Below, piece by piece: positions 3,076 to 50,702 of a stretch of 64,000 bases of DNA; positions within the stretch are counted from its first letter, which is position 1; the number at the start of each line of letters is the position of its first letter. The notes below the pieces were generated by a model. That model was not told the origin of the DNA, did no database searches, and was given only the letters and a program-made list of their open reading frames with translations. A program made the position numbers and the translations under genes. This DNA comes from Minisyncoccota bacterium (GTDB lineage Bacteria > Patescibacteriota > Minisyncoccia > Phycocordibacterales > UBA6899), in the NCBI GenBank assembly GCA_035583355.1, contig DATEZQ010000003.1, positions 193,844 through 257,843 of the forward strand, given 5' to 3'.

Positions 3076-3103
3076 TTGATTTTTTGCGTATTTGCGCTAT
3101 AGT
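3076..3103 (+). promoter_or_regulatory. sigma70-like promoter upstream of fusA
   Basis: TTGATT, 16 nt spacer, TATAGT, about 85 nt before the fusA ATG. Confidence 0.4.
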
Positions 3104-3188
3104 TGGCCCATTACTCACGAGTTTTGGAGTTTTTTGGGCTCCCGAACTTTGCGACATCGTCGCAGCATTAATTGTTAAGATAATTTTT

Positions 3189-5336
3189 ATGGATCAATCG
3201 TATCCGCTCGAGAAAACTCGAAACTTCGGAATCATTGCGCACATCGACGCAGGCAAGACGACAACGTCAGAGCGTGTGCTCTTTTATACTGGTGAGTCTC
3301 ACAAGATTGGTGAGGTGCACGAGGGAGCAACGGTCATGGACTGGATGGAGCAGGAGCGTGAGCGCGGTATTACGATTACCTCTGCTGCGACCACTGCGTT
3401 TTGGACTCCAACCTACGCAGACAAGAAGGATGCTGAGAAGAAGTTCCGCTTCAATCTCATCGACACTCCTGGACACATCGACTTCACCATCGAGGTGAAG
3501 CGTTCTCTTCGCGTCTTGGACGGTGCAGTTGTCGTCTTCGACGGCGTTGCTGGTGTCGAGCCACAGTCAGAGACCAACTGGCGTTATGCTGACGATGGAA
3601 AGGTGCCACGTATCTGTTTCATCAACAAACTCGATCGTATGGGTGCATCATTTGAGCGTTCATACCAGAGTATCTTGAATCGCCTCACGAAGAATGCAGT
3701 GCGCATGCAGATTCCTGTTGGCGAGGAGGAGAATGTTTCTGGTGTCATCGATCTCTTTGAGCGCGTTTACTACACGTTCGAGGGAAACATGGGAAATACA
3801 CTCGTGAAGCACGAAGTTCCTGCAGAGTACAAGGATGATGTCGAGAAGTACCGTGGTGAGCTCATTGAGGCAGTTGTTGCCCAGGATGAGGCACTCATGG
3901 AGAAGTATCTCGAGGGTGTTGAGCCAACGATGGAGGAGTTCAAGAGGGTGATGCGTAAGGCAGTTATCGCGAACAAGATTATCCCAGTGTACACTGGTAC
4001 TGCTCTCAAGAATAAGGGTGTACAGCTCGTGCTCGACGCAGTCGTCGATTTCCTTCCAAGCCCACTTGATATCCCACCTACAAAGGGTATTGATCCAAAC
4101 ACTGATCAGGACATCACTCGTCTTGCATCGAACGATGAGCCATTCGCCGCACTCGCATTCAAGGTTGCTGCAGATCCATTCGTGGGTCAGCTCACCTTCT
4201 TCCGTGTGTACTCAGGAAAGCTTGAGGCAGGTTCATACGTCTACAATGCAACGAAGGGAAAGAAAGAGCGTATCAGTCGTATCGTGCGTATGCATGCAAA
4301 CGACCGTGAGGAAGTGAAGACTGTGTACGCGGGAGAGATCGCAGCTGCGGTCGGTCTCAAGGACACCTTCACCTCAGATACACTTTGTGATGAGGATAAG
4401 CCAATCATCCTTGAGCGTATCGTTATCCCTGAGCCAGTCATCTCGATGCGTATCGAGCCAAAGACAAAGGCAGATCAGGAGAAGATGGGTGTTGCGCTCT
4501 CACGCCTTGTTGCGGAAGATCCTACATTCCGTGTTACTACCGATGAGGAGACAGGTGAGACAATCATCTGGGGAATGGGAGAGCTTCACCTCGACATCAT
4601 CGTCGATCGTATGAAGCGTGAGTTCAACGTGGAGTGTACAACCGGCAAGCCACAGGTGGCATTCCGTGAGACCATTCAGGGTTCTGCTGAGCAGAATGAG
4701 AAGTACTTGAAGCAGTCAGGTGGTAAGGGACAGTACGGTCACGTAGTGATCCGTATCAAGCCTATGGAGCCACTCGCAGAGGGTGCAACCGTTCCAAAGA
4801 ACGTCACACGCGAAGCAGACTTCGAGTTCATCAACAACATTAAGGGCGGTGCAATTCCTCAGGAATTCATCCCCGCAATTCTTAAGGGTGTGCGCGAGGG
4901 TCTCGATCGCGGTGTCGTCGCAGGTTTCCGCCTCGTCAACGTTTCAATCGAGCTCTTCGATGGTTCATACCATGATGTCGACTCATCAGAAATCGCCTTC
5001 AAGATTGCTGCATCGATGGCTGTTCGCGAGGCTGCTCGCAAGTCACGTCCAGTGATCCTTGAGCCAATGATGTCAGTGGAAGCAATCTTCCCTGATGAGT
5101 TCATGGGTGATGTTTCGGGTAACCTTTCATCACGTCGTGGACAGATTAGCTCAATGGGTGAGCGAGGTATGAACAAGGTGCTTACTGCACTCGTTCCACT
5201 TTCAGAAATGTTTGGATACGCAACAACATTGCGCTCAATGACACAGGGTCGTGGTACGTTCACCATGACATTCCAGGAGTATGCTCCGGTGCCTGCCAAC
5301 ATCGAAAAGGATATTGTTGCATCACGCGCAAAGTAA
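3189..5336 (+). CDS. fusA: translation elongation factor G
   Basis: [35 protein letters not shown]... G-domain motifs [14 protein letters not shown] and NKLD. Start moved to the ATG at 3189 (the ORF track begins at 3084). Confidence 0.95.
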
Positions 5337-5406
5337 GAACGCCCCTTCGGGGACCAGGCGTTCTTGCCCGTAGATGTCTCGCCTCCGCGAGCCATATCAA
5401 CTCAAG
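5335..5406 (+). repeat. conserved ~70 nt two-hairpin module (copy 1; copy 2 at 58496-58567)
   Basis: aagaacgccccttcggggaccaggcgttcttgcccgtagatgtctcgcctccgcgagccatatcaactca matches 58496-58567 apart from a few substitutions, one of them compensatory within a hairpin. Confidence 0.7.
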
Positions 5407-5465
5407 CAAAAACCACCATCAATGCATGGTGGTTTTTGCTCTTTCGGGTAAATCTTCATATTTTG

Positions 5466-5550
5466 GCGACCTTGCCCTCACGCTTCGGCATGCGACTCGC
5501 TCACCGTACTCCATGTACGGCTCGCTAGAGTTCGCACGCCTCCAGCGAGG
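5466..5550 (+). repeat. intergenic repeat family copy A (downstream of fusA)
   Basis: Shares cctcacgcttcg, a GTAC-core palindrome, ctcgctagagttcgcacgcctcc and tccagcgagg with the copies at 15575-15637, 19043-19265 and 45462-45545. Confidence 0.65.
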
Positions 5551-5816
5551 GCAATCTCATCCCAAATCTGAAATTTATCGTTCAAATAAAAACGCCCCTC
5601 GGCGTTTTTATTTTTCAAGATTTGCTGAAGCGCTATGACCTTGCTATTTTATTGTACTCGATAAAATGGAAAGGGGCCGGGAAAACAGCAGTTTTCCCGT
5701 GGAGGAAGGCAGTGAGTCTTCGAGCGCCCTGAACCGTGGGTTTCCGAGGAGCAATATTCCTCGCGGTTTCATTGTTTGTTATAAGTAAAAACGCCCCACG
5801 GCGTTTTTGGGGAGGT

Positions 5817-6338
5817 CTAGCGGCCAGAAAAATCTTGGGTATAGATTGCGCACTTGTAAGCGCCAGGGCTACTGATGACGGTGGGGTCTGCGAAGTCTCC
5901 GTTTGGGAGACAGAGCGACATGGTGTCGGACAAATATCCCGTTTGTAGTTTATACCCCGCACCATTTGAAGCATAGTGATAGCCTTCCGTTACGCCTACT
6001 CCCGCACAGCCACTGGGGTCGATTGGCAGTATGGGGATGAATTCGGGTGCAAGGTCGGGGATGAACCCATTGCTTCCCGAGCGGTCGAGTCCCCAAGGGC
6101 CATCACCGGGATTTTTGCAAACACTAAGCCACATATTGGATGTGTTTGGGTAGGTATTGTATTTGTCTTTGTAGAGTTCGAGTGCCGTGTTGAGCTGCTT
6201 GAAGTCGCTGTAGCGTCTTGCGACACGCGCTTTCATGCGTGCACTGCTCAGTGCAGCCAGGATGACACTCGAAAGAAGTCCGATAATCGCAATCACAACC
6301 AAGAGTTCAATGAGAGTGAATCCTTTTTGATGTTTCAT
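5817..6338 (-). CDS. type IV pilin-like protein (prepilin-type N-terminal cleavage/methylation domain)
   Basis: MKHQKG|FTLIELLVVIAIIGLLSSVILAALS class III signal with conserved E5. Start taken at the M preceding the pilin leader. Confidence 0.8.
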   Translation of the reverse strand: MKHQKGFTLIELLVVIAIIGLLSSVILAALSSARMKARVARRYSDFKQLNTALELYKDKYNTYPNTSNMWLSVCKNPGDGPWGLDRSGSNGFIPDLAPEFIPILPIDPSGCAGVGVTEGYHYASNGAGYKLQTGYLSDTMSLCLPNGDFADPTVISSPGAYKCAIYTQDFSGR

Positions 6339-6448
6339 CAACGTATTATAGGTCAAAAACATATTTGAAGATACGGACAATTTCGTAAGTTTAATTGCTT
6401 ATACTCCTCAGTAGTTCGAATGTTGTTGAGTGTGAGTAGGGAGTCAAT

Positions 6449-6949
6449 CTAGAGGAGAAGCTTGCCGAGGCGGCCGTCGAAGACATTTGTACCTTGGCCG
6501 TCACGTGCGGTGACTTGGGAGGCGGGGAGAAGGTTGATGTAGGCTCTCCTTGGGTTGGTGCGGGCGAAGTAGATGTCGACGAACTGATATGAGCCAAAGC
6601 TCAGTCCTTTGGTGGTGCCTCGCACGATGTTAATGACACCTCGTTCTTGTTGGTTCGGTACAGCCATCTGAAAGTCAGAGTTCGCTGCATCGAAGTGATC
6701 TATTTTGAGTGCATCACTGTCGTAGGCGAGGACAAGCTCGGCGGCATTGATTACTGCATCTTCTGTTGAGATTGATATGCGCACATGCGTCAGCATGATG
6801 TCTCCGGTGTCATCAAGTTGCTGCATGTCGATGCTTGCATAATCTCGCGCCGCAAGTGCAAGGGATGGAAGAGCACCGCTGAATATTGCCATGAATACAA
6901 AACTCACGAAAAGACGTTGTACGCGAATACGTGAATGGAGGTGTAGCAT
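6449..6949 (-). CDS. hypothetical secreted protein
   Basis: N-terminal signal-like segment LFVSFVFMAIFSGALPSLALAA. Start chosen at the internal M. Co-directional with the upstream pilin gene. Confidence 0.45.
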   Translation of the reverse strand: MLHLHSRIRVQRLFVSFVFMAIFSGALPSLALAARDYASIDMQQLDDTGDIMLTHVRISISTEDAVINAAELVLAYDSDALKIDHFDAANSDFQMAVPNQQERGVINIVRGTTKGLSFGSYQFVDIYFARTNPRRAYINLLPASQVTARDGQGTNVFDGRLGKLLL

Positions 6950-7282
6950 AATTCGAATGAAGTATGAATTGTATAAAGAAAAACCATCGCTTAGGATGAG
7001 TCGAGAGATGTAGCACGTGTATGCGTGATACAAGGGTGACCGGTTACGCCAGTAGCTCCGCACGGTTCAGGCGTCCAAATAAGAACCGCGTTTCATTGCT
7101 TCCACCTAAGTATGTATAGTGAATTATGGTTTGCATTTTAAGTCAAGCATTTTATACTTGACTAATATAATTGTAAGTGTCATATGGGTTGTCCTAGGGC
7201 AGGTGCACAAATTCGATATTGTTCTCGTTGCATTTCTGTTTGGTTGTTGTAGTGTAACTTCAGAAAAGTATATGGAGATTCT

Positions 7283-8311
7283 ATGTGCGTGTGTGAAAAG
7301 TATCCCGAGGTCTTGCTCTCTGTGCAAAGCGTCCAAAAACTCGCGCGAGCTGATGGTTTGAGGAACGCGTCAATTGTGCGCAGAGTACTGATTGACGATC
7401 GTCCGGTTGTGCTCGTGCAAGCTTGGAATAAATACAATCAAAAAGTTCACCTCTTGCTTTGCCCTGGTGATGTCTGCTATCGCAAAGAACTGCAGGTGCT
7501 TCCGAGCGGCGAAAAAGTCCTGACTCGCATCATAGAGGACACATACAAGTGCCAACGCAAAGAAGAACTTCGAAAACAGATTCGTACTGAAGTTGAAGCT
7601 GCGTATCGGAAGGGGAAACTCTCTTATGATCCAGTGCGACTCATTATGAATATGTTTGAGCGCGTTTCTGCGGGGGAGTATCTTGGAGAGTTCAGCCCCG
7701 GCATTATTTACGTTCAAGAAGTCGCAGAGATGCTGAATCGAATATTTCTTTCAAAGCCAGGAATTCTGGGAGCAAAGTCGTTCTGTAGTTTTAAGGAACG
7801 CAAAAAGCGTTTTGCGAACGATCGGCCACCATTCTTCCTTAGTCTTGGTTTTCCGCTCGAAAAGATCATGGGAAAACTTAGGGTCGATAATTCGCTTGCG
7901 TATGCTCCGCTCACGAACGAGGAGTGTCGTACTGCTGCATTTTTCGAAGATACGCTTGCGCTTATCGAACGTCTTGTGGAGCAGAAGAAATTGGGCCTAC
8001 ATGGAATGATTCTCTGTGCCCCTTACCCCGAGGAGACGCCTGATCAAGAGCGTATATTGCTCGAGGAAAATCACAGTGCGCTGCTCTATGCGCGCGTGGA
8101 AGGGATGCATGTCTTCCAGGTGCAGCGTCATTATAATCCTGAGTTCGCGTCCCTCTGCGTTTTCAGGCAGCAAGGTGAGACGCGTGCAAAGATTGTCGCT
8201 GTGAAGAAGGTGCACCTCTCCTTTGGTGCCATATTCGGGCCAGATGTTTCGGATGTGGAATACTGGAGTGAGTGTTTCTCTTACTTCCTGTTGCATGGTC
8301 GTTTGAAATAG
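7283..8311 (+). CDS. hypothetical protein
   Basis: 342 aa ORF. Terminator hairpin ggggcacctcggtgcccc+T at 8317-8345. Confidence 0.5.
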   Translation: MCVCEKYPEVLLSVQSVQKLARADGLRNASIVRRVLIDDRPVVLVQAWNKYNQKVHLLLCPGDVCYRKELQVLPSGEKVLTRIIEDTYKCQRKEELRKQIRTEVEAAYRKGKLSYDPVRLIMNMFERVSAGEYLGEFSPGIIYVQEVAEMLNRIFLSKPGILGAKSFCSFKERKKRFANDRPPFFLSLGFPLEKIMGKLRVDNSLAYAPLTNEECRTAAFFEDTLALIERLVEQKKLGLHGMILCAPYPEETPDQERILLEENHSALLYARVEGMHVFQVQRHYNPEFASLCVFRQQGETRAKIVAVKKVHLSFGAIFGPDVSDVEYWSECFSYFLLHGRLK

Positions 8312-8428
8312 AAAGATGGGGCACCTCGGTGCCCCTTTTCGTTAGTATCTTCAATAACTGATTTCCTTGACAGGTGTCAATATTTTATGTAGTTTAAAAA
8401 CAGTAAAGCTCAAAGAAAGGGGGTCGGT

Positions 8429-8851
8429 ATGTCCAATACCAGCGCACTTTCCCCCGACGTCCTTTCGTATCTCGAAAGTATTCGTGGGGCTCCGTGCTAT
8501 CTTGAACGTTTCCTCTCTTGTCCTGATTTCAAATTCATGCGAGAAATCGCAAAGGACTTTGGCGGTATTGAAATTGCCCTCCCGAATACGCACTACACGT
8601 TTATGCTTAACGTGTATGGTGTCATCATGTTCCAACCTTCGGGCGACTATGGGTATGGTGTCACCGTCAGAGGTGTGGACGAGGATAGTGCTACTCATGA
8701 GGCGAGGGTGCGAGAGTTTCTCTCTGCGGTGCGGAAGTCCATTTATCCCGAAACGGATAGCGCATGGTGTGCATCTGTCGTTGTGCAAGCATGTTACTCC
8801 GCGATCACTGCTCGCGTGGGAAATGCCATAAAACGTAGCGTTCGTGAATGA
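8429..8851 (+). CDS. hypothetical protein
   Basis: GGGGGTCGGT SD-like sequence before the ATG. Terminator 8857-8884 after. Confidence 0.45.
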   Translation: MSNTSALSPDVLSYLESIRGAPCYLERFLSCPDFKFMREIAKDFGGIEIALPNTHYTFMLNVYGVIMFQPSGDYGYGVTVRGVDEDSATHEARVREFLSAVRKSIYPETDSAWCASVVVQACYSAITARVGNAIKRSVRE

Positions 8852-8912
8852 TGTGAAGCGCCGACCTGGTCGGCGCTTTTTTGTTGCTTTACCCCTCTGG
8901 TATAATACTAAT

Positions 8913-9935
8913 ATGATCGAATCCTTACATAACCATACGACGGCGTCCGACGGCAGACTTTCTCATAAAGAATTATTTAGCCTCGCAGAGCAGCTCGGAG
9001 TTGGAGTACTTGCATATACTGATCATGATGCACTTCCTGATGATAATGCACTAAAGTTTCTTGAGTCGGTGCGTGATCGGAAGACGAAGTGGATCATTGG
9101 GATGGAAATCACCGCGTCACTCCCCGATGAGTGTTACGGTCACACAGGTACGATTCATGTGGTCGGACTATTCCTTGATCCACACAACGAAGCACTTCGT
9201 GAGCATGCACGCAAGGCACAGGAGGCACGCATTGAGCGCATGCAAATAATCGTACGCAAGTTGAGTGACTTAGGTTTCATGATTTCTGAGCAAGACTGCC
9301 TCAAGGAGAGTGGTGGTGAGTCTGTAGGTCGTGTCCATATTGCAGCTGCGCTCGAGTCGCATCCGGAGAATGGCGCAGTGCTCCAGCACTTGATGCTTCA
9401 GATGGAAGTTGCTGGTCGCACTGATAAGCGTATCGGTGACAAATATGCCCGTATGATTGCAATAGGCCCGCGGCAATATATATATGATGTATGCCTTTCT
9501 CCTGATGCATTCAAACCCGCATATGTTGAGGCGCGTTATACCCCAGATATTGATGAAGCAACGACGCTCATTCGTCATGCGGGAGGTATGTCATTCATCG
9601 CACATTACTCGTACGAGCGAAAGAAGCTGCCGATGGAGACGGTACGCGCATTGCTTCGAGAGAATCGCGTTGATGGAGTAGAGGTCGTTTATGGTGCGGG
9701 GATGAAGAATACAAGTGAAGCTGCGACATTCGAAGAAGATAAGATTGCGCTACGTACACTCTGTACGTTGTATGGCAGGCAGATCTCGGGAGGAGCTGAT
9801 GCGCATTCCACTGAAGACCTCGAGCGTTACGCTGCAGATAAATCTTTCTCTGGAGAGAGTAAGGGATTGGCTGCAAAGATCATTGCTACTGGTCAGGTGG
9901 AGGTGCGTAATTCATCAATCACTATTACATCATAA
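8913..9935 (+). CDS. PHP-domain phosphoesterase
   Basis: MIESLHNHTTASDGRLSHKELFSLAEQLGVGVLAYTDHD is a PHP (polymerase and histidinol phosphatase) N-terminal His/Asp motif. TATAAT directly upstream. Confidence 0.7.
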   Translation: MIESLHNHTTASDGRLSHKELFSLAEQLGVGVLAYTDHDALPDDNALKFLESVRDRKTKWIIGMEITASLPDECYGHTGTIHVVGLFLDPHNEALREHARKAQEARIERMQIIVRKLSDLGFMISEQDCLKESGGESVGRVHIAAALESHPENGAVLQHLMLQMEVAGRTDKRIGDKYARMIAIGPRQYIYDVCLSPDAFKPAYVEARYTPDIDEATTLIRHAGGMSFIAHYSYERKKLPMETVRALLRENRVDGVEVVYGAGMKNTSEAATFEEDKIALRTLCTLYGRQISGGADAHSTEDLERYAADKSFSGESKGLAAKIIATGQVEVRNSSITITS

Positions 9936-9965
9936 AGAAAATCGCCACCCTAAGGTGGCGAGTTT

Positions 9966-10979
9966 TTATTTCGGTTTCGGAATGCCGAGGTGGAGAAGGA
10001 ACTCACCTCGATCGCTTCCATAGGAACTTGTGAGGAGGTCGAGCTTCACGGGAATTTCCCTGCTCGCATCTTTGCCATTGAAGTCAAGTGTGATCGTCGT
10101 CGATTGCTTGCTCGAAAACTTTTGACGAATCCCACTGTGCCTGTAGCTGCTAATGAGGCTTTTCTGCGTGATCGCCTGTCGGCCGATGAAAATGTCGTAG
10201 ATGCGAAACTTGTTGCCATCTTTCGAGGTAACCTGCGTCGCTCCGCGACCATACTTGCTGAACAGGTGATCGCCGATCGTGAGCTCACTGTCGGCTCCGA
10301 GATTTGTTACAAGGATGTCGACATAGATGCTATTGGGCCGCTCGCTCAATATATAGAAGCGCTTGACTTCGAAGGTGAAGCCATTCTGCTTCACCATGAC
10401 TTCGGTTGTGCTCCCTGCTGCACTCGTGTGCTGATCGGGCCCGAATTCCTGAAACGACATGCGCAAGAGATCAGAGACGAATTCATCTTTCAGAATCGTC
10501 GCACTTGCAACGCTGAGCACTTCGCCTGAGGTTGAGCTGATGAGTCTTGCATTGATGCGGAGCCCAACATTCGTATCGGTGATGCTACCCGTGAGGATCG
10601 CATCGATAGCGAGGAGCTTGCCGAGGCGCTGAATTGCTGCCCCATCGACGGGTCCGGAGAGCTCAAACTTTTGCTCTTTGAGAATCTTCACCAACAATTC
10701 GCGCTCAACGATTTGGAATTTCCGTGTCTCGAAGAGTTTCACGGTGAGCTCTTCGGCAAGGATCTTTCCGAATGCACTCGTTTGGCTATCGCCACCAGAA
10801 AGACTGAGAATCGCGATTTTGATAACGCCTGTCTGTCGGCTCTTGCTAGAGATGTCTGACGCGAGGTTTGTGATGCTTGCGTCGAAACGGTCGCTCGCGG
10901 GCTGCGCTTGAAGCGTGGGCCCAAACACAGTGAGCATGAAAGAGAAAAACAGAGAGAGAAGAACATTCCAAGGCTTCAT
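9966..10979 (-). CDS. secreted protein with CsgG/TolB-N/LpoB-like periplasmic domain (paralogue 1)
   Basis: Signal peptide MKPWNVLLSLFFSFMLTVFGPTLQA. Motif IAILSLSG...FGKILAEELTVKLFETRKFQIVERELLVKILKEQKFELSGPVD. Confidence 0.55.
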   Translation of the reverse strand: MKPWNVLLSLFFSFMLTVFGPTLQAQPASDRFDASITNLASDISSKSRQTGVIKIAILSLSGGDSQTSAFGKILAEELTVKLFETRKFQIVERELLVKILKEQKFELSGPVDGAAIQRLGKLLAIDAILTGSITDTNVGLRINARLISSTSGEVLSVASATILKDEFVSDLLRMSFQEFGPDQHTSAAGSTTEVMVKQNGFTFEVKRFYILSERPNSIYVDILVTNLGADSELTIGDHLFSKYGRGATQVTSKDGNKFRIYDIFIGRQAITQKSLISSYRHSGIRQKFSSKQSTTITLDFNGKDASREIPVKLDLLTSSYGSDRGEFLLHLGIPKPK

Positions 10980-11097
10980 GGGAGCTCCTTTGGGGGAGTG
11001 TATTCTGTGCTGAGTATGCAATATTGTCTGTGTATAGTCAAGTATTTGTTAGTTATCCCATATATAGAAAAACCGCCACAAGCTGTGGCGGTGTGCA

Positions 11098-12087: not shown

Positions 12088-12260
12088 AGAATCTCCATTG
12101 CAATGTACGAGCTACATGCAGTATGCAACTATTGTTTCTGTCAGTCAAGTAATGAGAAATTTCTTCAATTGAGAGCAAAATCTAGTAATTGACATACATC
12201 ATTGTTACATGTATGGTTAGCCCAGCTGTACATTCATACTTTTTGCAAAGGGAGCCAATC

Positions 12261-12593: not shown

Positions 12594-12604
12594 AAGGAGT
12601 TTCC

Positions 12605-40414: not shown

Positions 40415-40415
40415 G

Positions 40416-40439
40416 AAAAACCCGCCGAAGCGGGTTTTG
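40416..40439. terminator. bidirectional terminator
   Basis: aaaaacccgc-cgaa-gcgggttttg between convergent genes. Confidence 0.6.
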
Positions 40440-40440
40440 T

Positions 40441-42031: not shown

Positions 42032-42032
42032 T

Positions 42033-42566
42033 ATGTCACGTCTCGCAAAAAAGCCGTTGATCCTCCCAAAGGGAGTTGAGGCAAAGCTCGATGGTACAAA
42101 GCTTACCATCAAGGGTCCTAAGGGTGAGCTCTCACGTTCATTCCCTGCATTCGTTAAGTTCACCATCGCAGACAATGCGATCACTGTAGCTATCGAAACA
42201 GAGGAGCGTAAGGAGAAGCCAATGCTTGGAACCGCAGCAGCACTTGCTCGCAACATGGTCGTCGGTGTAACCGAGGGCTTCAAGAAGCAATTGCTTATCG
42301 AAGGTGTCGGCTTCAAGGCTGATGCAAAGGGTGACGAGCTTCACATGGCGCTTGGATTCTCACATCCCGTCATCGTTCCTGTATCAAAGGGTCTCAAGGT
42401 AACCACAGGTAAGGGTACTATCGACATCGAGGGTATCGACAAGGAACTTGTCGGTGCATTCGCCGCAGATGTACGCGCACTCAAGAAGCCAGAGCCTTTC
42501 AAGGGTAAGGGTATTCGTTACGCTGGTGAAGTTATCCGCCGTAAGCAGGGTAAGAAGAGTGCATAA
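42033..42566 (+). CDS. rplF: 50S ribosomal protein L6
   Basis: MSRLAKKPLILPKGVEAKLDGTKLTIKGPKGEL... start at the ATG after the rpsH stop. Confidence 0.93.
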   Translation: MSRLAKKPLILPKGVEAKLDGTKLTIKGPKGELSRSFPAFVKFTIADNAITVAIETEERKEKPMLGTAAALARNMVVGVTEGFKKQLLIEGVGFKADAKGDELHMALGFSHPVIVPVSKGLKVTTGKGTIDIEGIDKELVGAFAADVRALKKPEPFKGKGIRYAGEVIRRKQGKKSA

Positions 42567-42591
42567 TGCATTCGTCTCCTAACATAAACTT

Positions 42592-42945
42592 ATGATGAAT
42601 AAAACACAGCAGAAGCAGTATAACCGTATGCGCCGTGGTAATCGTATCCGCGCAAAGGTATCAGGTACTGCAGACAAGCCACGCCTCGCCGTATTCCGTT
42701 CAGCGGTACACGTACAGGCACAGCTCATTGACGATGTGAAGGGCATCACTCTTGTAGCCGCTCATGACCTCAAGGACATGAAGGGTACCAAGATGGAGCG
42801 CGCTCAAGCAGTTGGTAAGCAGCTTGCAATTGCCGCAAAGGCAAAGGGAATCACAACAGTAGTCTTTGACCGTGGAGGTTTCCTCTACGCAGGTCGCGTC
42901 AAGGCACTCGCAGATGCAGCCCGCGATGGTGGTCTCGCATTCTAA
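42592..42945 (+). CDS. rplR: 50S ribosomal protein L18
   Basis: …[20 protein letters not shown]…[25 protein letters not shown]. Confidence 0.9.
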
Positions 42946-42959
42946 ACAGCAATACTTAT

Positions 42960-43652
42960 ATGGAAGCAAACAACAAGCCAGCAGCAGCGCCAGCATCAGC
43001 AGGTGCTCGCCCCGCAGCACGCCCATTTAGCCCACGAGGAGCAGCCGGTGCACGTCCAAGTTTTGGAGGAGCACGTGGAGGAGCTCGCGGAGGAGCAGGC
43101 GCACGTGGTGGCCGTGATGGACAGCGTGGTGGCCGTGATGGTCAGCGCGGTGGACGCATGGAGCGCCCAAAGCCAGAGTTCGACCAGAAGTCAATCGATG
43201 TTCGTCGTGTGGCCCGTGTGGTCACCGGAGGACGCCGCTTCTCATTCGCTGTAGCTATGATCATCGGTGACCGCAAGGGTCGCGTTGGTGTAGGTACAGG
43301 TAAGGCAGGTGATATCTCACTTGCTATGGAGAAGGCAGTGAAGGATGCAAAGAAGCACATGATCACTGTACGTACAACAAAGACGCATTCAATTGCGCAT
43401 GATGTTCGTGCAAAGAGTTCATCTGCAATCATCGAAATGCGTCCCGCACCAGAGCGCGGTCTCGTCGCAGGTTCAGCAGTACGTAACGTACTCGAGCTCG
43501 CTGGCGTTACTGACGTGACGGCAAAGATTTTGTCAGGTAGCAAGAACAAGCTCAATATTGCTCGCGCAACTATTGTCGCTCTCTCTGATCTCCGTGCCCC
43601 AAAGAAGGCAGCGGTAAAGTCTGAGGAAGTTCTCGCAGAAGCTAAAGCGTAA
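42960..43652 (+). CDS. rpsE: 30S ribosomal protein S5 with Ala/Arg/Gly-rich N-terminal extension
   Basis: S5 core …VRRVARVVTGGRRFSFAVAMIIGDRKGRVGVGTGKA… preceded by a ~65 aa RGG/GGRDGQRGG-repeat extension. Confidence 0.92.
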   Translation: MEANNKPAAAPASAGARPAARPFSPRGAAGARPSFGGARGGARGGAGARGGRDGQRGGRDGQRGGRMERPKPEFDQKSIDVRRVARVVTGGRRFSFAVAMIIGDRKGRVGVGTGKAGDISLAMEKAVKDAKKHMITVRTTKTHSIAHDVRAKSSSAIIEMRPAPERGLVAGSAVRNVLELAGVTDVTAKILSGSKNKLNIARATIVALSDLRAPKKAAVKSEEVLAEAKA

Positions 43653-43657
43653 ATCAT

Positions 43658-44101
43658 ATGCAGTTAAACGAACTCAAGCGCACCAACGCCAACATGGGCT
43701 CTAGCCGTGTTGGTCGTGGTGGTAAGCGCGGTAAGACCGCAGGTCGCGGTACGAAGGGTCAGAAGGCGCGTGCTGGTCACCGCATTCGCCCAAACATGCG
43801 CGATATCATCAAGAAGTATCCAAAGCTTCGTGGTTACAAGTTCTCTTCAACAGAGACAAAGCCAGAAGTGATCAATCTTGCTACTATCGAATTGCATTTC
43901 GAGAACGGTGCTACGGTTTCTCCAGCAACGCTCGTCGAAAAGAAGCTCATCCGTACGTTCGCAGGTCGCACACCAGCAATCAAGATTCTTGCTACTGGTG
44001 CGCTCACAAAGAAGCTTAACGTAACAGGCTGTATCCTTTCAAAGACTGCTATTGCAGCATTTGAGAAGGCAGGCGGCACGGTTACTGTTCTCGCTGCTTA
44101 A
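43658..44101 (+). CDS. rplO: 50S ribosomal protein L15
   Basis: MQLNELKRTNANMGSSRVGRGGKRGKTAGRGTKGQKAR... follows rpsE directly, with no rpmD (L30) gene in between. Confidence 0.9.
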   Translation: MQLNELKRTNANMGSSRVGRGGKRGKTAGRGTKGQKARAGHRIRPNMRDIIKKYPKLRGYKFSSTETKPEVINLATIELHFENGATVSPATLVEKKLIRTFAGRTPAIKILATGALTKKLNVTGCILSKTAIAAFEKAGGTVTVLAA

Positions 44102-44123
44102 TTAACCTTGTTAACTTACGCGT

Positions 44124-45395
44124 ATGACCAACTTCTTCAATAAGGTCCACGCGATCTTCGCGGACCCAGTGCTTCGTCGTCGAATGCTCTTCACGATCGG
44201 TGCATTGGTACTCTTCCGCCTCGCAGCATCAGTGCCTATTCCAGGTGTTGACGCTGCCCGCCTCGCGCGCGTCCTCGAGCAGAACCAATTCCTTGGTTTG
44301 CTCAATGTGTTCTCTGGTTCCGGTTTGGGCAATCTCTCTATCGTGATGCTCGGCGTCGGTCCAAGTATCACTGCATCGATCATCATGCAGCTCCTCACTA
44401 TGCTCTTCCCTAAGTTGAAGGCAATGTATCACGAGGAGGGCGAGATTGGTCGTAAGAAGTTCTATCAGGTGAGTCGTTTGATCACCGTACCACTTGCACT
44501 CATTCAAGGTTTTGGACTCCTCGTCCTTCTCCAGAATCAGGGCGTCTTGGGCGCATCAACACCATTCACCTTGTTCATGAACGTGCTCATTGTGACGGCA
44601 GGATCACTCCTCCTCATGTGGCTCGGCGAACTCATTACGGAATTCGGTATTGGTAATGGCTCATCGCTCATTATCTTTGCCGGTATCGTGGAGCGTATCC
44701 CAAGTATCATTGCACAGGTTGCGGCGAACTATACCGCAGCAGACATTCCGATGTACCTCGGCTTCGCTGTGGTTGCATTCGGTGTGCTCGCATCAATTAT
44801 CTTGATGTCTGAGGCAGAACGTCCTGTTCCGATTACGTATGCAAAGTCTGTTGCCGGCGGCCGCCAGGTTGGTGGTGTCGCAACGTACTTGCCACTGCGT
44901 GTGAATCAGGCAGGTGTCATCCCGATTATCTTTGCTTTGTCGATGTTCCTCTTCCCACAGCTCATTGGGGGTTTCCTCAAGGGCATGGCAAGTCCAATGG
45001 CGCAGAGCGTTGGTAATTTCTTGGTGACGTACATCTCAGGCGGTTGGGTTCATGCAATTCTCTACTTCTTGCTTGTGCTCTTCTTCACGTATTTCTACAC
45101 CGCGGTCACTTTTGATCCCGATGCAATCGCGAAGAATCTCCAGCAGAGTGGTGCATTCATTCCCGGCATTCGTCCTGGAGTTTCGACTTCAGAATATCTC
45201 GCAAAGGTAGTTGCGCGTACGACGCTCCCTGGAGCAGTCTTCCTTGCAGTCATCGCCGTGTTGCCATTCGTGATGCAAAGCCTCACGGGTAACCAGGCAC
45301 TTGCTATTGGAGGTACAGCAATCTTGATCGTTGTGTCTGTGGTCACCGATTTGGTGAAGCAGCTTAATGCTCAGCTCTCAATGAGAGAATACTAA
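44124..45395 (+). CDS. secY: preprotein translocase subunit SecY
   Basis: 423 aa polytopic membrane protein in the conserved position after rplO. …PIPGVD…LGVGPSITASIIMQLL…. Confidence 0.95.
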   Translation: MTNFFNKVHAIFADPVLRRRMLFTIGALVLFRLAASVPIPGVDAARLARVLEQNQFLGLLNVFSGSGLGNLSIVMLGVGPSITASIIMQLLTMLFPKLKAMYHEEGEIGRKKFYQVSRLITVPLALIQGFGLLVLLQNQGVLGASTPFTLFMNVLIVTAGSLLLMWLGELITEFGIGNGSSLIIFAGIVERIPSIIAQVAANYTAADIPMYLGFAVVAFGVLASIILMSEAERPVPITYAKSVAGGRQVGGVATYLPLRVNQAGVIPIIFALSMFLFPQLIGGFLKGMASPMAQSVGNFLVTYISGGWVHAILYFLLVLFFTYFYTAVTFDPDAIAKNLQQSGAFIPGIRPGVSTSEYLAKVVARTTLPGAVFLAVIAVLPFVMQSLTGNQALAIGGTAILIVVSVVTDLVKQLNAQLSMREY

Positions 45396-45423
45396 AAACA
45401 AACCCCGCAAGGGGTTTGTTTTT
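45395..45423 (+). terminator. rho-independent terminator after secY
   Basis: aaaaacaaacccc-gcaa-ggggtttgttttt. Confidence 0.65.
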
Positions 45424-45461
45424 AGTATTCCTTCCGTGTACCAAATATCCGCACTGGTCTT

Positions 45462-45545
45462 TTTGTCTGGGGCGACCTCACGCTTCGCCCTCCATGTACC
45501 ACTGTACATTATCGGGCTCCAGCGAGGCCGCCGCAGACAAAAATA
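45462..45545 (+). repeat. intergenic repeat family copy B (short form, downstream of secY)
   Basis: ctttttgtctggggcgacctcacgcttcgccc...gtaccactgtac...gggctccagcgaggccgccgcagacaaaaat. Its termini match the long copy at 19043-19265. Confidence 0.65.
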
Positions 45546-45663
45546 CTCAGTGTTTCATGGTTGTTTATGTGTGAATAGTATTTCTACATAGTTCATTTGT
45601 TTCAGCAACAATCCCTCATTAGAATCTTAAGCATAGAAAAACCACCCCAAGGGGTGGTTTGTG

Positions 45664-46290
45664 CTATGCGTAGCGTGCAGAGAGCGATTCGCACATTTTG
45701 CGTGCTCTGCATTCGAGATCTTTCAGCGTCTTGACGTTGTCCTCGAGCTCGTCAAATGTTTCGCCGCTGGAGAGGTCATTGAAAAGTTTTCGAGATGCAG
45801 GAATAAGTGCAAGCGCGCTGAGAATATTTGGATCTTCCGCGCGAATTTCAGTGAAACGAGTCTGGACTATTTCATTAATGCAATGGTTGTAATGTTTAAT
45901 GCGCACGATGTGTGCATGCATCATCTCGCGAAGGTTTTGTTCCCTTTGCGAGCTCGTATGCTCTGCGAGCACGTGCTTCCATGCAAAGATTGCATTGATG
46001 AGTCTATTCCACTCCTCCAGGATCTCATGGAGTTTTTTGTTCGACATATAAAATCGAACAGCAGAAATCTCTTCCCGTATCGCGTGGAATTTTTCAACGA
46101 AAGCCATGTACTGCGACTCCACAGCATCTGCGGTGGCATTGAGTGGAATCTGCCTAAGGAATTTCACTTTCGGATAGCACTCTTTGTCGTAGAATATGAC
46201 GACGCTGCTGAACTCCTTTTGTGCCTCATCGCCTTTTTCTGCAATTGCTTTCTTGAGTTCTTCGCGCGACATATTCGCTTTCATGTACAC
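45664..46290 (-). CDS. hypothetical helical protein (tandem paralogue P1)
   Basis: About 208 aa. A bidirectional terminator aaaaccacccc-aa-ggggtggttt lies at its 3' end. Confidence 0.45.
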   Translation of the reverse strand: MYMKANMSREELKKAIAEKGDEAQKEFSSVVIFYDKECYPKVKFLRQIPLNATADAVESQYMAFVEKFHAIREEISAVRFYMSNKKLHEILEEWNRLINAIFAWKHVLAEHTSSQREQNLREMMHAHIVRIKHYNHCINEIVQTRFTEIRAEDPNILSALALIPASRKLFNDLSSGETFDELEDNVKTLKDLECRARKMCESLSARYA

Positions 46291-47073: not shown

Positions 47074-47223
47074 AAGCACCTCACAGGGGGTTGTTGAAAA
47101 GAGCGTTAGTTCAAGCCGGATTTTAACACATATCATGGTAAATAGCAAGTTACTACACACATAGCTTCCGAATATTACGAGTGAAAAAGCCCGCTGAAGC
47201 GGGCCTTTGAAGTACGGGTTGTG

Positions 47224-47850
47224 CTATTTGGCTAATCCGTCAGTGTAATTCGTGACGAGATGGATACATTCGGTGATGAGCACCTTTGCATTTTCGATTG
47301 ACTCGGAGAGCTTCTCGAGCTCTGCAAAGGTGTGCAGTCGACCACAGTGTTCGATGCCATTGTAGATCTCGAATGCTATGGCGATCTTCTTGAGAATGAA
47401 GGGCTCCTTGCGCAGGATCATTTGCAGTCCGAAGTCGAGATGCTTGGCAAGTTCATTGCGCAGGCAAAGAGTCTCGCTGTAGCGTTCGCCGATGAGGCGG
47501 CGCAGAGCGATCTCGGGTTCAGGGTCGGCCTCATAGGGTTCCTTGAGTTCCTGGAGTCCATTGAGCGTCTTGATGAGGCCCTTGATATGCTTGATGGACT
47601 TATGGAGAATCGTGCGGCTTTTCGCATCGAGTAGTTCGATGAGGTCGCTACGGTAGACTTCCCAGTCCTTAAACATCGTGTCGATGGGCTTGGTCATCTG
47701 GCTGGCCGTTGCGGAGTGACCCGCATCAAAAAGCTTGTCTGCCGCGGCGTAGTAGGGAATAAGGCTTACTTTGGTCTTCGCCATGGCAAGATTCGCCTCG
47801 CCAACAAGATCCTCGATCTCGTTACGGAGTGTGCAGCTCAGTTTGTACAT
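47224..47850 (-). CDS. hypothetical helical protein (tandem paralogue P3)
   Basis: MYKLSCTL...AAADKLFDAGH...RLHTFAELEKL aligns with P2 (MLHKLSTL...AAAEAKAEGH...RIHTFAGLNEHL). Confidence 0.45.
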   Translation of the reverse strand: MYKLSCTLRNEIEDLVGEANLAMAKTKVSLIPYYAAADKLFDAGHSATASQMTKPIDTMFKDWEVYRSDLIELLDAKSRTILHKSIKHIKGLIKTLNGLQELKEPYEADPEPEIALRRLIGERYSETLCLRNELAKHLDFGLQMILRKEPFILKKIAIAFEIYNGIEHCGRLHTFAELEKLSESIENAKVLITECIHLVTNYTDGLAK

Positions 47851-47946
47851 GTAACCTCCTTAGGTAACCGTACATATATTAACATAGTATATTATGTTTG
47901 TCAATGTTAAAGGATTATAAAAATAGCCATAAATATGGCTATTTCT

Positions 47947-48567
47947 TTAATCATTTGTTGTCTTGAAGACCATTGCGATTATAGCATTATGGACCTCCTC
48001 GATACTCTGCTCTCCATTAATCTCTATGAAATCGTAGTCACGGTCGCGGCGGTAATGTTCAACAACAGGGAGGACATCACTTTCGTACCACGCAAGGCGT
48101 TTCTCAATAGCCTCTTTCGTATCATCGGCACGGCCCTCTTCCTTTGCGCGGCCGAGCATGCGGGCGAGTGCCCAATCATGAGAAACGTTCATATAGATGA
48201 CAACAGGCTGCTCACGCTTGAAGAACTTCAGTGCAATGTCGAGATTCTGTTGTTCATTCATTGAGCGTGGTGAGCCGTCGATAATGAGATGCTCATGTCC
48301 ATGGAGATTTGCAATAAAGGTATTGGACCAGATCCACATTGCGAGGAAGTCGGGCTGTCGTTCGCCATTATTCAGCGCATCACGAGAGATATTTGCAGCG
48401 TACGTATTTCCTTTTACGAATTCTCGGAAGTAGTTTCCTGATTGATGATAGAAAATTTCACAACCTGGGTCTTGTTCTCTTAGGTAGTTCTGTAGCAGTT
48501 TGACTTGAGTACCTTTACCACAGCCTGATGGCCCGATAAAGATGAATGTTCGTTGCGGTGTATTCAT
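47947..48567 (-). CDS. adk: adenylate kinase (short form)
   Basis: MNTPQRTFIFIGPSGCGKGTQVKLL P-loop. About 206 aa. Start at the internal M. Inverted relative to secY. Confidence 0.75.
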   Translation of the reverse strand: MNTPQRTFIFIGPSGCGKGTQVKLLQNYLREQDPGCEIFYHQSGNYFREFVKGNTYAANISRDALNNGERQPDFLAMWIWSNTFIANLHGHEHLIIDGSPRSMNEQQNLDIALKFFKREQPVVIYMNVSHDWALARMLGRAKEEGRADDTKEAIEKRLAWYESDVLPVVEHYRRDRDYDFIEINGEQSIEEVHNAIIAMVFKTTND

Positions 48568-48656
48568 AGGAATATCATAGCATAAATACAAAAAGAAAAT
48601 GCAGGATGGACATATGTTTATGAAAAATAACAGCCAACTTGTGTAATTGGCTGCTA

Positions 48657-49253
48657 TTAGTCTCCGAGGCGATACGCACAATACCATCCGCCTTCGCTAT
48701 CACATGGACCATATCCGCAACACGCGCTTACTCCTACACCCATGCAATCTGCATCGGTCCACGGAGTTTCTTCTGGTCTCCATGCAATGTATTTTCCTGT
48801 ACTTATGGCGACGGTGCAGCCCGCATTGATCTGCCCATCGATATACATATAGTGGTCGCCCCACCCACGTTTCGTGTCGGGGTCCTTGGGAATCGTAATG
48901 TAGGTGCTGAGAATATTTTTGAGAAATGTATTTCCGGGTACAGCGCGGTCTCCCCAGCATGTAGTTGCATCAGTTTCTCCAATACAGAACCCATCACCCA
49001 CAACGGGAAGAGTTCCTGAAGCGTCCTCAACCATTCGGAATGCCATTTCGAGTTGGTGAATATCCGCAAGTCTTCGCGCATTGCGCGCCTTCACCTTCGC
49101 GCCCTTGAGGCTTGCAAGTACAACTGATGAGAGGAGTCCGATAATTGCTATCACTACAAGGAGCTCGATGAGAGTGAAACCCTTGATCGTTGAAGCACGA
49201 TTTTTTCCTACGCGTGCTACGTCATCTTTGCTACTTTCATTTCTGCGAACCAT
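48657..49253 (-). CDS. type IV pilin-like protein
   Basis: ...ASTIKG|FTLIELLVVIAIIGLLSSVVLASL with a long leader. Cys-rich C-terminal domain. Confidence 0.75.
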   Translation of the reverse strand: MVRRNESSKDDVARVGKNRASTIKGFTLIELLVVIAIIGLLSSVVLASLKGAKVKARNARRLADIHQLEMAFRMVEDASGTLPVVGDGFCIGETDATTCWGDRAVPGNTFLKNILSTYITIPKDPDTKRGWGDHYMYIDGQINAGCTVAISTGKYIAWRPEETPWTDADCMGVGVSACCGYGPCDSEGGWYCAYRLGD

Positions 49254-49362
49254 TGAAATATTATAGCAGATACATTTGGTGCCGCTGGGGATGTTATTTA
49301 TTATCCATATTTCGCTTGTGAAAGCAGATTTCGGTCATAGCAAATGATGCTATACTATTTAT

Positions 49363-49851
49363 ATGAACAATGGACGACGTGGCTTTACATTAATAGAATT
49401 ACTGGTCGTGATTGCGATTATTGCGTTACTTTCAAGCGTGGTGCTTGCCTCACTCGCAACTTCGCGTGCAAAGAGTCGTGATGCGAAACGTCGCAGTGAC
49501 CTCGATCAGATTCGTATCGCACTTGAGATGTATTACGATGCAAAGGGGAAGTATCCTGAGGCAGCCGACGGAAATTGCTCCGCAGTCGATGGACGTAGTT
49601 TCCAGGCAGGTGGTTGCTTGCTCGTGCTTGTTAGTGGCGGATATATTTCAAAGCTTCCTGCAGACCCACTCGCAACATCGACCGACCCACTCTATCGTTA
49701 TGATTCGTGGTGTGCGCTTCCTCCTCCTGCGCAGAATAGCAATCAGCGTTATCGCTTCATCGCGAACACCGAATTGCCTGCGGGTGGCCTGGCGAATAAT
49801 CTCTGGGCGGACAATCAAATCATGGTTGCCTCATGTGCGGATCCAAAATAA
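49363..49851 (+). CDS. type IV pilin-like protein
   Basis: MNNGRRG|FTLIELLVVIAIIALLSSVVLASL. Confidence 0.75.
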   Translation: MNNGRRGFTLIELLVVIAIIALLSSVVLASLATSRAKSRDAKRRSDLDQIRIALEMYYDAKGKYPEAADGNCSAVDGRSFQAGGCLLVLVSGGYISKLPADPLATSTDPLYRYDSWCALPPPAQNSNQRYRFIANTELPAGGLANNLWADNQIMVASCADPK

Positions 49852-49934
49852 TCGGATAGAATTCGTGTTTTGTGCACATAAAAGAAAAAGCGAGAGCACT
49901 CGCTTTTTTTGCATCTTTTTGATAGTATGGGCAA

Positions 49935-50702
49935 ATGTCTTTAATAAAGTCTCCAGGTGAAATAGAACTACTTCGTGAGGGCGGTAAGCGTCTTGCGAAG
50001 GTTTTGCGCATGACGCGCGACTATATCAAGCCAGGTATGACGACTCGTGAGGTCGATGCCTATGCCGAAAAACTTATCCGAGATATGGGGGACACTCCTC
50101 CATTCAAGAACTATCAGCCACGCGGAGCTCGCAGGCCTTTTCCCGCAGCACTGTGCATTTCGGTCAATGATGAGATTGTGCACGGCATTCCCGGTGACTA
50201 TGTCATCAAGGATGGCGATGTGGTCAGTATCGATCTTGGGCTGACCCATAAAGGGCTGGTGACCGATCATGCACTCTCAGTAATCGTAGGTGATGCTCCA
50301 CAGCGTGTAAAAGATCTTTTGCGCTATACCGAGGAGGCACTTTGGAAAGGTATTGATGCTGCGAAGATTGGAGGACATATTGGTGACATTTCTGCAGCTA
50401 TTGAAGAAGTACAGATTAAGCATAAATACGGAAATGTGCGCGAATTAGGTGGCCATGGTGTTGGCCACGGAGTGCACGAAGATCCTTATGTGCCTAATTA
50501 CGGACGCAAGGGTACGGGCCCTCGACTCCAGCAAGGGATGGTGCTCGCGATTGAACCAATGTTCATCCTCGATGGCACTGAGGATATTCGTCAGATGCCT
50601 GATGGTTGGACCATAGTGTCGCATTCTGGCGCTACTGCCGCACACTTCGAGCACACAATCGCTTTTACCGATAAGGGTGTCGAAGTCCTTACAATGGAAT
50701 GA
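49935..50702 (+). CDS. map: methionine aminopeptidase type I
   Basis: …SVNDEIVHGIP…DGDVVSIDLG…GHGVGHGVHEDP…AIEPM…H.EHT. metal-binding residues in canonical order. Confidence 0.92.
   Translation: MSLIKSPGEIELLREGGKRLAKVLRMTRDYIKPGMTTREVDAYAEKLIRDMGDTPPFKNYQPRGARRPFPAALCISVNDEIVHGIPGDYVIKDGDVVSIDLGLTHKGLVTDHALSVIVGDAPQRVKDLLRYTEEALWKGIDAAKIGGHIGDISAAIEEVQIKHKYGNVRELGGHGVGHGVHEDPYVPNYGRKGTGPRLQQGMVLAIEPMFILDGTEDIRQMPDGWTIVSHSGATAAHFEHTIAFTDKGVEVLTME

Follow-up and report, generated by a model that had tools for sequence, protein, structure and literature searches.

Separate blocks of the str–S10–spc ribosomal gene string in a Parcubacteria genome and its relatives

Gene blocks and gaps

The stretch analyzed here, 64,000 nt of contig DATEZQ010000003.1 (assembly GCA_035583355.1), is called the window throughout. 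It carries genes of the str–S10–spc string of translation and ribosomal protein genes, whose S10–spc part is the textbook example of a gene order that resists change. Pfam scans of the sizeable open reading frames (ORFs), with gene starts refined from gene calls after Pfam placement, give the order fusA / tuf-rpsJ / rplCDWB / rpsS…rplE / rpsN…secY / adk / map (coordinates in Table 1). Every gene present keeps its canonical order and strand, except adk, which is inverted. The gaps measure 9.0 kb (fusA–tuf), 262 nt (rpsJ–rplC), 16.9 kb (rplB–rpsS), 1.64 kb (rplE–rpsN), and 4.5 kb (secY–map), and in this respect the Pfam map confirms an earlier note on the same DNA, which had described the superoperon as split into blocks by non-ribosomal DNA. 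The fusA gene call is 715 aa long and identical in two sequencing runs assembled by Logan; rpsJ carries a conserved N-terminal extension.

The ~9-kb fusA–tuf gap holds a pilin gene, a c-di-GMP-II riboswitch, a PHP-domain gene, genes for two CsgG/FlgO-like lipoproteins, and genes for membrane proteins. The rplB–rpsS interval carries YjdM, a HAD-like gene, three pilin genes, an alternative oxidase gene (AOX), PGA_cap, queA, and a gene with a Tad4-like C-terminal domain. The rplE–rpsN gap contains a pilin gene, which does part rplE from rpsN as had been claimed, followed by a 182-aa minus-strand ORF and a copy of the hairpin repeat described below; the close relative L170 has a counterpart of this ORF of equal length, strand, and position, the two being compared on those properties alone. 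Between secY and map lie three minus-strand ORFs, adk, and two pilin genes; the inversion and displacement of adk, also claimed earlier, are identical in two runs. Every large gap contains minus-strand genes, and the inserted DNA does not differ from its flanks in GC content. No integrase, transposase, or phage gene was found by Pfam among the ORFs of the window. Altogether, seven type IV pilin-like genes lie within 50 kb, several of them directly adjoining ribosomal blocks and one carrying FG-GAP repeats.

The earlier note was also right that infA, rpmJ, rpsM, rpsK, rpsD, and rplQ do not follow map, and that rpsL and rpsG do not precede fusA: tblastn gave no significant match in the window to any of these or to rpmD (best E = 0.13). 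The same claim for rpoA is judged from the Pfam scans only, which report no RNA-polymerase alpha domain in the window; no dedicated rpoA probe was run. Neither rpsL nor rpsG is seen in L167, a locus reaching 1.2 kb farther upstream than the window. In more distant relatives, rpsL-rpsG are kept upstream of fusA, at 0.25-2.3 kb.

Judged from its proteins, the organism is a member of Parcubacteria (candidate phyla radiation), with Candidatus Lloydbacteria as the nearest named group. L30 (rpmD) is missing between rpsE (end at 43652) and rplO (start at 43658), and the nearest homologues are parcubacterial. The best genome matches to L2, from Paceibacterota and Kaiser-, Taylor-, and Zambryskii-bacteria, are 60-64 % identical; L2 of named Lloydbacteria is 73-75 % identical.

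Junctions in relatives and in independent assemblies

Window proteins were mapped on 160 loci, retrieved by L2 from species-representative genomes and metagenomes, and every junction was measured. Group A comprises 26 Parcubacteria loci whose L2 is 58-67 % identical; group B comprises the remaining 134 loci with an L2 match and includes other lineages of the candidate phyla radiation (e.g., Uhrbacteria and Yanofskybacteria). The rplB–rpsS gap has a median of 717 nt in group A (>300 nt in 14/20 loci, maximum 4861 nt) and of 9 nt in group B (>300 nt in 0/126, maximum 227 nt). The rplE–rpsN gap shows medians of 641 nt in group A (>300 nt in 8/13, maximum 2862 nt) and 33 nt in group B (>300 nt in 0/64, maximum 101 nt), and the fusA–tuf gap, medians of 787 nt (>300 nt in 6/8, maximum 2403 nt) and 59 nt (>300 nt in 3/18, maximum 1342 nt), respectively. 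Both groups have tight junctions everywhere else in the S10 and spc operons. The break between rpsJ and rplC, which the earlier note had listed among adjacencies broken outright by a spacer of ~260 nt, is present at 262 nt; it is the least unusual of the breaks, gaps there being seen in 8/71 comparison loci outside the clade (median 76 nt).

All-against-all blastn and blastp found no homology among the gap sequences or gap ORFs of the rplB–rpsS gaps in the wider clade. Gap ORFs of relatives recognized by Pfam include MazE/PemK and YafQ/RelB toxin–antitoxins, an IS200-like Y1 transposase (in L014; the sole transposase seen, and not in the window), a reverse transcriptase, a diacylglycerol kinase, and DUF proteins. 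Guanylate kinase (gmk) lies between secY and adk in relatives, and between adk and map in L019. Because gap contents are unrelated between relatives and the gaps are confined to the clade, the open junctions can be read as clade-specific sites of gene turnover. Pilins were considered as recurrent junction cargo of the distant relatives and rejected, as a motif search of the gap ORFs was negative.

Closer relatives were found via S19 and L2 homologues and their contigs (S19 86-96 %, L2 82-90 % identical). A core of AOX - PGA_cap - queA - Tad4-like gene is common to the window and to L170, L171, L172, and L176. In L170 and L171 it is followed by rpsS…rplE and then pilin…rpsN. In GCA_021851895.1 (S19 96 %), the order is pilins - AOX - PGA_cap - queA - Tad4-like gene - gap - rpsS…rplE - pilin - three ORFs - rpsN…secY. 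A single 18.6-kb contig of GCA_964386905.1 (L176; L2 90 %) reads tuf - rpsJ - 452 nt - rplCDWB - DEAD helicase - adk - pilin - AOX - PGA_cap - queA - Tad4-like gene - rpsS, with rplB and rpsS 11.4 kb apart and adk inside; the distance in L172 is likewise 11.4 kb. GCA_964616125.1 (L175; S19 86 %) has a pilin gene and proS between rplE and rpsN, and a pilin gene stands directly 3' of rplE in three lineages (window, L170, L175). In GCA_043736515.1 (L177; L2 82 %), fusA is separated from tuf by 5.4 kb, and no rpsS is seen in the 10 kb fetched after rplB. The rplB–rpsS distance in close relatives is, accordingly with these contigs, 11.4 kb or >10 kb.

As close relatives share the layout, the layout of the window is taken to be inherited; by gene order, the fragmentation, into five or six pieces, is stable and lineage-wide, unusual among bacteria and normal for this lineage. 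The same arrangement across relatives is the result that the earlier note had named beforehand as refuting its account, and the reading shifts from disruption of one genome to the architecture of a lineage, while the observation itself stands. What remains unusual, as claimed, is the opening of rplB|rpsS and rplE|rpsN, but it is not peculiar to this genome. The term accessory insertions, used in the same note, is too narrow, as the intervening DNA also carries housekeeping genes: queA here, and adk and proS in relatives.

The junctions were also compared with independent assemblies, mis-assembly having been raised earlier as a possible explanation. Logan contigs of run SRR5133178 that are 100 % identical to the window cover 1-5360, 5349-14437, 14408-21686, 28144-46229, and 47101-52415; contigs of a second run, SRR5177929, are 99.2-99.9 % identical to it. 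Independent contigs span the upstream side of tuf, the downstream side of rplB, the upstream side of rpsS, rplE–rpsN, the downstream side of secY, and adk–map. The junction from the Tad4-like gene to rpsS recurs in two JGI metagenomes, with S19 identical and L22 diverged, and a contig of a relative, CAYLUP010000008.1 (18.6 kb), carries rplB and rpsS together. Apart from the join between fusA and the following pilin gene, the junctions are reproduced by independent assemblies, which confirms that the break-up is real and not an assembly error. The arrangement of fusA upstream of tuf with genes between them is also found in relatives.

At the fusA|pilin break lies a repeat, module A (5335-5407), of which a second copy with 89 % identity (58498-58569) follows the 5S gene. 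Its presence behind both fusA and the 5S gene probably explains the breaks of short-read contigs. Short direct repeats (58573-58607, 58666-58700) also follow the 5S gene.

Transcription signals, leader RNAs, and the hairpin repeat

The blocks apparently form separate transcription units, each equipped with a promoter, a leader RNA, and a terminator. For rpsS, L003, L170, L172, L173, and L175 all retain the upstream -35 and -10 elements with the same spacing, though the flanks diverge. When the rpsN upstream region is aligned with L170 and L175, the -35 does not vary, the -10 hardly does, and ~90 nt of the leader are conserved. L177 has in common with the window the tuf -35/-10 pair and a hairpin that covaries, and the rpsJ–rplC spacer, aligned with L176 and L177, resembles that of L176 in a promoter-like site (16200-16227) and in a covarying hairpin of 12 bp. 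Terminator hairpins of other sequence occupy the same position after rplB in L176 and L177; the hairpin after rplE is the same in L170 and is replaced at the same place by a different hairpin with a T-run in L175. The terminators after rplB and rplE, each found in three lineages, appear on this comparison to be conserved in function and not in sequence. The claim of the earlier note that the blocks carry their own promoters and terminators hence has comparative backing for the promoters of rpsS, rpsN, and tuf and for the ends of rplB and rplE, and not for map and fusA, where no clear promoter was found.

The rpsS leader, between the conserved promoter and the rpsS ATG (no U-run terminator is seen between them), is 250-330 nt long across relatives. 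It comprises two almost invariant domains (35597-35676 and 35747-35848), each followed by a variable hairpin, and holds an invariant 25-mer, TACGCCGTGGGAGGATCAGGGGCGT; two invariant loops, GGGAGGAU and AUCCUCCC, are mutually complementary. RNAalifold yields 68 pairs, 23 of them with compensatory changes, and 94.9 % of cells are paired; the observed values are reached in 0/500 shuffles, and slid controls give 2-6 compensated pairs. There is no visible Shine–Dalgarno sequence at the rpsS ATG. The leader matches no Rfam 15 family, even with lax filters, and in Rfam scans of the whole window (gathering scores; E < 1) the junctions are free of known leaders, riboswitches, and RNA genes, the only matches being the L10 leader, the c-di-GMP-II riboswitch, and rRNAs, all away from the junctions. 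Covariance models of the leader and of the hairpins match the close clade only, with no match in the wider clade. Mimicry of rRNA by leaders or hairpins was sought with blastn-short against the 23S and 5S genes of the window, the 16S gene lying outside it, and only chance 7-10-mers were obtained. By its conservation and position, the rpsS leader is a candidate for an undescribed cis-regulatory leader of ribosomal protein genes. The public record of L175 has a run of N at ~1079-1170, exactly over the variable hairpin between leader and ATG.

A hairpin repeat (family R1) was found by repeat search and then by a covariance model (cmsearch), its copies scoring 28-113 bits. These are imperfect palindromes of ~100 nt (range 90-230 nt), with a folding free energy (dG) of -48 to -52 kcal/mol (z = -6 to -8). 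Five copies lie in the window and five in three close relatives, where they occupy the rpsJ|rplC spacer and rplW-rplB (L176), rplN-rplX (L170 and L175), and the region upstream of rpsN (L175); the last site is filled in the window and L175 and empty in L170. Outer stems covary between copies in 13/14 pairs. All 10 copies adjoin translation genes, eight of them in the orientation of the gene, an association to be read with the choice of the relatives' loci around ribosomal protein genes. In the window the association is modest: 5/5 copies fall in 13 of the 27 intergenic regions (Fisher p = 0.016; by length, p = 0.07). A link between the repeat and translation genes is suggestive. Pfam found no RAYT or transposase in the window that could belong to the repeat, and no target-site duplication could be resolved. 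We read the family as similar to REP or to miniature inverted-repeat transposable elements (MITEs); a functional role is also possible.

Beyond the copy after rplB, a tRNA-like cloverleaf (19431-19551, +) has a 9-bp variable arm, a canonical T-arm, and an oversized anticodon loop, and is followed by a terminator (19565-19594). It passes ARAGORN only when an intron is allowed, as 'tRNA-Stop(tta)' with a UUA anticodon, and Rfam has no match. An integration site at this element was rejected, as the repeat search found no second copy of its 3' half.

Table 1. Features of the str–S10–spc region, in window coordinates unless a relative is named
Feature	Position	Strand	Evidence and remarks
Block 1: fusA (EF-G), solitary	3189-5336	+	Pfam GTP_EFTU, EFG_III, EFG_IV, EFG_C
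Terminator-like hairpin 3' of fusA	5405-5440	+	within fusA 3' region 5335-5440
Hairpin repeat E1, after fusA	5457-5571	+	111 bits; dG -48.9 kcal/mol, z = -6.2
Pilin-like gene	5817-6362	-	
Candidate tuf promoter, TTGACT-16-TATACT with TG extension	14107-14134	+	scan 10/12; tuf leader follows (promoter and leader together 14107-14357)
Block 2: tuf 14358-15551, rpsJ 15770-16129	14358-16129	+	Pfam, gene calls, alignment
Hairpin repeat E2, between tuf and rpsJ	15559-15671	+	112.6 bits; z = -8.0
rpsJ–rplC spacer, 262 nt, strongly structured	16130-16391	+	dG -93.6 kcal/mol, z = -7.6
Block 3: rplC, rplD, rplW, rplB	16392-17006, 17008-17694, 17699-18067, 18095-18943	+	Pfam, gene calls
Intrinsic terminator directly 3' of rplB stop	18941-19005	+	~30-bp hairpin and U-run; dG -40.9 kcal/mol, z = -12
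Hairpin repeat E3, after rplB, ~130 nt extra internal sequence	19041-19269	+	27.7 bits for 19188-19269
rplB–rpsS interval, ~16 kb of non-ribosomal genes	19270-35387	both	Pfam
Pilin-like genes	27010-27561, 27598-28224, 32901-34622	-	
Terminator of Tad4-like gene	35388-35415	+	z = -5.0; conserved in L003
rpsS promoter, TTGACA-17-TAGTAT	35568-35596	+	scan 10/12
Structured rpsS leader RNA	35597-35884	+	alignments, RNAalifold
Block 4: rpsS 35885-36229, rplV, rpsC, rplP, rpmC, rpsQ, rplN, rplX, rplE 39173-39805	35885-39805	+	Pfam, gene calls
Intrinsic terminator 3' of rplE	39815-39842	+	z = -5.3
Pilin gene (39878-40414) with own extended -10 (TGnTATACT), nearly leaderless	39844-40414	+	Pfam N_methyl; -10 conserved in L170
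182-aa ORF of unknown function	40441-40989	-	gene call; no Pfam match
rpsN promoter, TTGACT-17-TAGATT	41131-41159	+	scan, alignment; leader follows (promoter and leader together 41131-41444)
Hairpin repeat E6, in rpsN leader, 12 nt before ATG	41321-41432	-	49 bits
Block 5: rpsN 41445-41630, rpsH, rplF, rplR, rpsE, rplO, secY 44124-45395	41445-45395	+	Pfam
Terminator 3' of secY	45396-45425	+	dG -20.1 kcal/mol
Hairpin repeat E4, after secY	45457-45548	+	94 bits; z = -7.5
adk, inverted and displaced	47947-48567	-	Pfam ADK; arrangement identical in two runs
Divergent pilin pair	48657-49253 (-), 49363-49851 (+)	both	stretch 48657-49910, ending with terminator 49883-49910
map	49935-50702	+	Pfam Peptidase_M24
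Hairpin repeats in relatives	L176 1569-1682, 3779-3891; L175 4139-4250, 8814-8904 (-); L170 12969-13080		

Interpretation, comparison with known systems, and further features

We consider it likely that the gene string kept its order and strand and was long ago pulled apart at a few fixed junctions, its pieces persisting as separate units. The open junctions would be fusA|tuf, rpsJ|rplC, rplB|rpsS, rplE|rpsN, and secY|adk/map. Once a terminator and, downstream of it, a promoter with a leader were in place, the junctions would have turned permissive, a step supported by the conservation of these signals. Small cargo (toxin–antitoxins, mobile-element genes, hairpin repeats) may then have come and gone, and in the sub-clade of the window the rplB|rpsS interval may have gathered and retained ordinary chromosomal genes, now exceeding 10 kb; both steps are suggested by gap sizes and contents. 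Each piece would end in an intrinsic terminator, and tuf, rpsS, rpsN, and probably rplC would start at their own sigma-70-type promoter with a conserved leader, leader structure being seen for rpsS and the rpsJ–rplC spacer. The ~100-nt lineage-specific hairpin repeat would additionally have colonized the neighboring intergenic DNA.

On the intact operons of E. coli, the S10 leader is bound by L4, and a site in spc is bound by S8. The leaders described here would take the place of that control, which in E. coli is exerted through one L4-dependent leader and one S8-dependent site. It is a possible, though rather doubtful, extension that ribosomal protein regulation was rebuilt in the clade as a whole: after S10 had been severed at rplB|rpsS and spc at rplE|rpsN, newly arisen clade-specific leaders (the ~250-nt rpsS RNA and others at rpsN, rplC, and tuf) would have taken over autogenous control, and the hairpin would be a functional mRNA element (processing, stability, insulation) and not a selfish MITE.

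Three other explanations were weighed. That a chimeric contig, produced by assembly or binning, joins ribosomal fragments with unrelated DNA is hardly credible: the fusA|pilin join is known from the original assembler only and the independent contigs retrieved lie outside 21686-28144, but window-identical contigs span most junctions, the second run and the two JGI metagenomes repeat the key ones, and the gene order is common to relatives from other studies, in one of which a single contig has rplB and rpsS 11.4 kb apart. That one or several mobile islands entered a canonical operon recently and in this genome alone, which is close to what the earlier note proposed, would fit the tRNA-like structure ~500 nt after rplB, the dispersed repeats at the junctions, the gene with a Tad4-like (anti-defense) domain at the right edge, and the mobile genes at the same junctions in distant relatives. 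It is nevertheless very unlikely, as the same inserted core and junctions recur in relatives with S19 and L2 only 82-96 % identical, the interval includes the housekeeping gene queA, Pfam detected no integrase, transposase, or phage gene in the window, GC content is uniform, and conserved leaders and promoters imply long-standing independent expression.

A further possibility is that read-through still accounts for most expression of the blocks, in one or two long transcripts, with the inserted same-strand genes as passengers and the conserved upstream RNAs acting in processing or stability and not as units of promoter and leader. Hairpin repeats do stand inside tight stretches of relatives (rplN|rplX, rplW|rplB) without breaking them, so that hairpins need not terminate; map, with no obvious promoter of its own, follows closely on a terminator; and read-through could suit short same-strand stretches, e.g., from rplE to the pilin gene. 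This reading is improbable, given the minus-strand genes in every large gap, the strong terminators with U-runs after rplB, rplE, and secY, and the -35/-10 spacing kept upstream of rpsS, rpsN, and tuf amid diverging sequence. Several points weigh against the preferred reading of an old separation at fixed junctions into independent units. The fusA|pilin join (5349-5360) is spanned by no independent contig, both Logan assemblies ending there, inside the repeat. Promoter-like sites barely exceed the shuffled expectation (22 vs 17.8 and 25 vs 17.7), and since the scans are weak, the case for separate units depends on conservation; a clear promoter was found neither for map, whose start is 25 nt past a pilin gene's terminator, nor for fusA (a 9/12 match only). 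The covariation of the rpsS leader comes from 6 sequences of ~4 independent lineages, and its structure was derived from the same alignment. The comparison leaves out relatives with L2 68-80 % identical, named Lloydbacteria among them, and of this genome only the window was seen, so that rpsL, rpsG, and the alpha-operon genes are not placed.

In cyanobacteria, plastids, and archaea, rpsJ is linked to tuf and detached from rplC. The window shares the position of rpsJ after tuf and apart from rplC; here the distance is only 262-452 nt, and the intervening RNA is conserved and structured. REP/BIME, ERIC, Correia, and other MITE-like elements are short intergenic palindromes in multiple dispersed copies. 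The hairpin copies resemble them in being short, imperfect, dispersed intergenic palindromes with covarying stems and one presence/absence site, but differ in that all 10 copies seen adjoin translation genes and that the window holds no RAYT or transposase. An earlier study of Gammaproteobacteria and Bacilli described insertion of a few genes at a junction of the translation cluster, after which the flanks drift apart; the events detailed there lie between operons (rpoBC|str, str|S10, rplL|rsmC). The present case is similar in that the order and strand of the flanks are kept and housekeeping genes may be among the invaders. It differs in that the recurrent breaks lie inside S10 (rplB|rpsS) and spc (rplE|rpsN) and are confined to one Parcubacteria clade, and in that the new pieces have their own conserved promoters and leaders. 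Within the S10 cluster, leaders have been proposed for L2 in Alphaproteobacteria (5' of rplB) and for L4 in Archaeoglobi (5' of rplC) (Eckert and Weinberg, 2020; PMC7247131). Like known ribosomal protein leaders, the rpsS RNA is a conserved covarying structure in the 5' untranslated region of a multi-gene ribosomal protein operon; unlike them, it has no Rfam 15 counterpart, and no leader upstream of rpsS is among the candidates of PMC7247131. The conserved promoters with leaders upstream of rpsS and rpsN, the tuf promoter with its hairpin, the structured rpsJ–rplC spacer, the terminators of differing sequence behind rplB and rplE in three lineages, and the hairpin repeat are new here.

The clade has kept two intra-operon breaks open over long distances (L2 identity down to ~60 %), which marks where the cluster can be cut and suggests that a cut has to be followed by the gain of a terminator, a promoter, and a new leader. 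With the rpsS leader, an uncultured group offers a concrete candidate for a new RNA that binds a protein or a ligand, and the open junctions may act as landing pads for toxin–antitoxin and other mobile genes beside those genes that this tiny genome expresses most strongly. In the candidate phyla radiation, tree building and quality control of bins often use ~16 ribosomal proteins co-located on one scaffold. In this lineage, variable DNA of 10-17 kb separates those proteins, and the repeats on its flanks break assemblies of short reads.

Among the genes of the rplB–rpsS interval, the alternative oxidase (28254-28925, +; Pfam AOX, E = 4e-34) stands beside PGA_cap and queA in relatives too. The gene at 34692-35378 (+), directly 5' of the rpsS promoter, matches Pfam Tad4, the type I Thoeris inhibitor, in its C-terminal part (E = 1e-14), and its position is conserved (L170 8901-9488; L004 7-471). 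In the fusA–tuf gap, the c-di-GMP-II riboswitch (7029-7112, -; 64.6 bits, above the gathering score) lies 5' of a gene for a secreted protein (6449-~6950, -) and the pilin gene at 5817-6362.

Farther downstream, 23S and 5S rRNA genes lie at 55161-58376, with neither a 16S gene nor a tRNA anywhere in the 64 kb. An L10 leader with rplJ-rplL stands isolated at 60121-61264, a further broken adjacency of the translation-gene cluster. The two ORFs upstream of this leader (59178-59588, 59670-60014) have no Pfam match, and rplK and rplA were not seen there, no direct probe having been made. After rplJ-rplL come a HAD-like gene (-) and metG, with no RNA-polymerase domain reported for these ORFs. A 32-nt inverted repeat (54994-55025 / 58190-58221) brackets the 23S gene and fits a processing stem.

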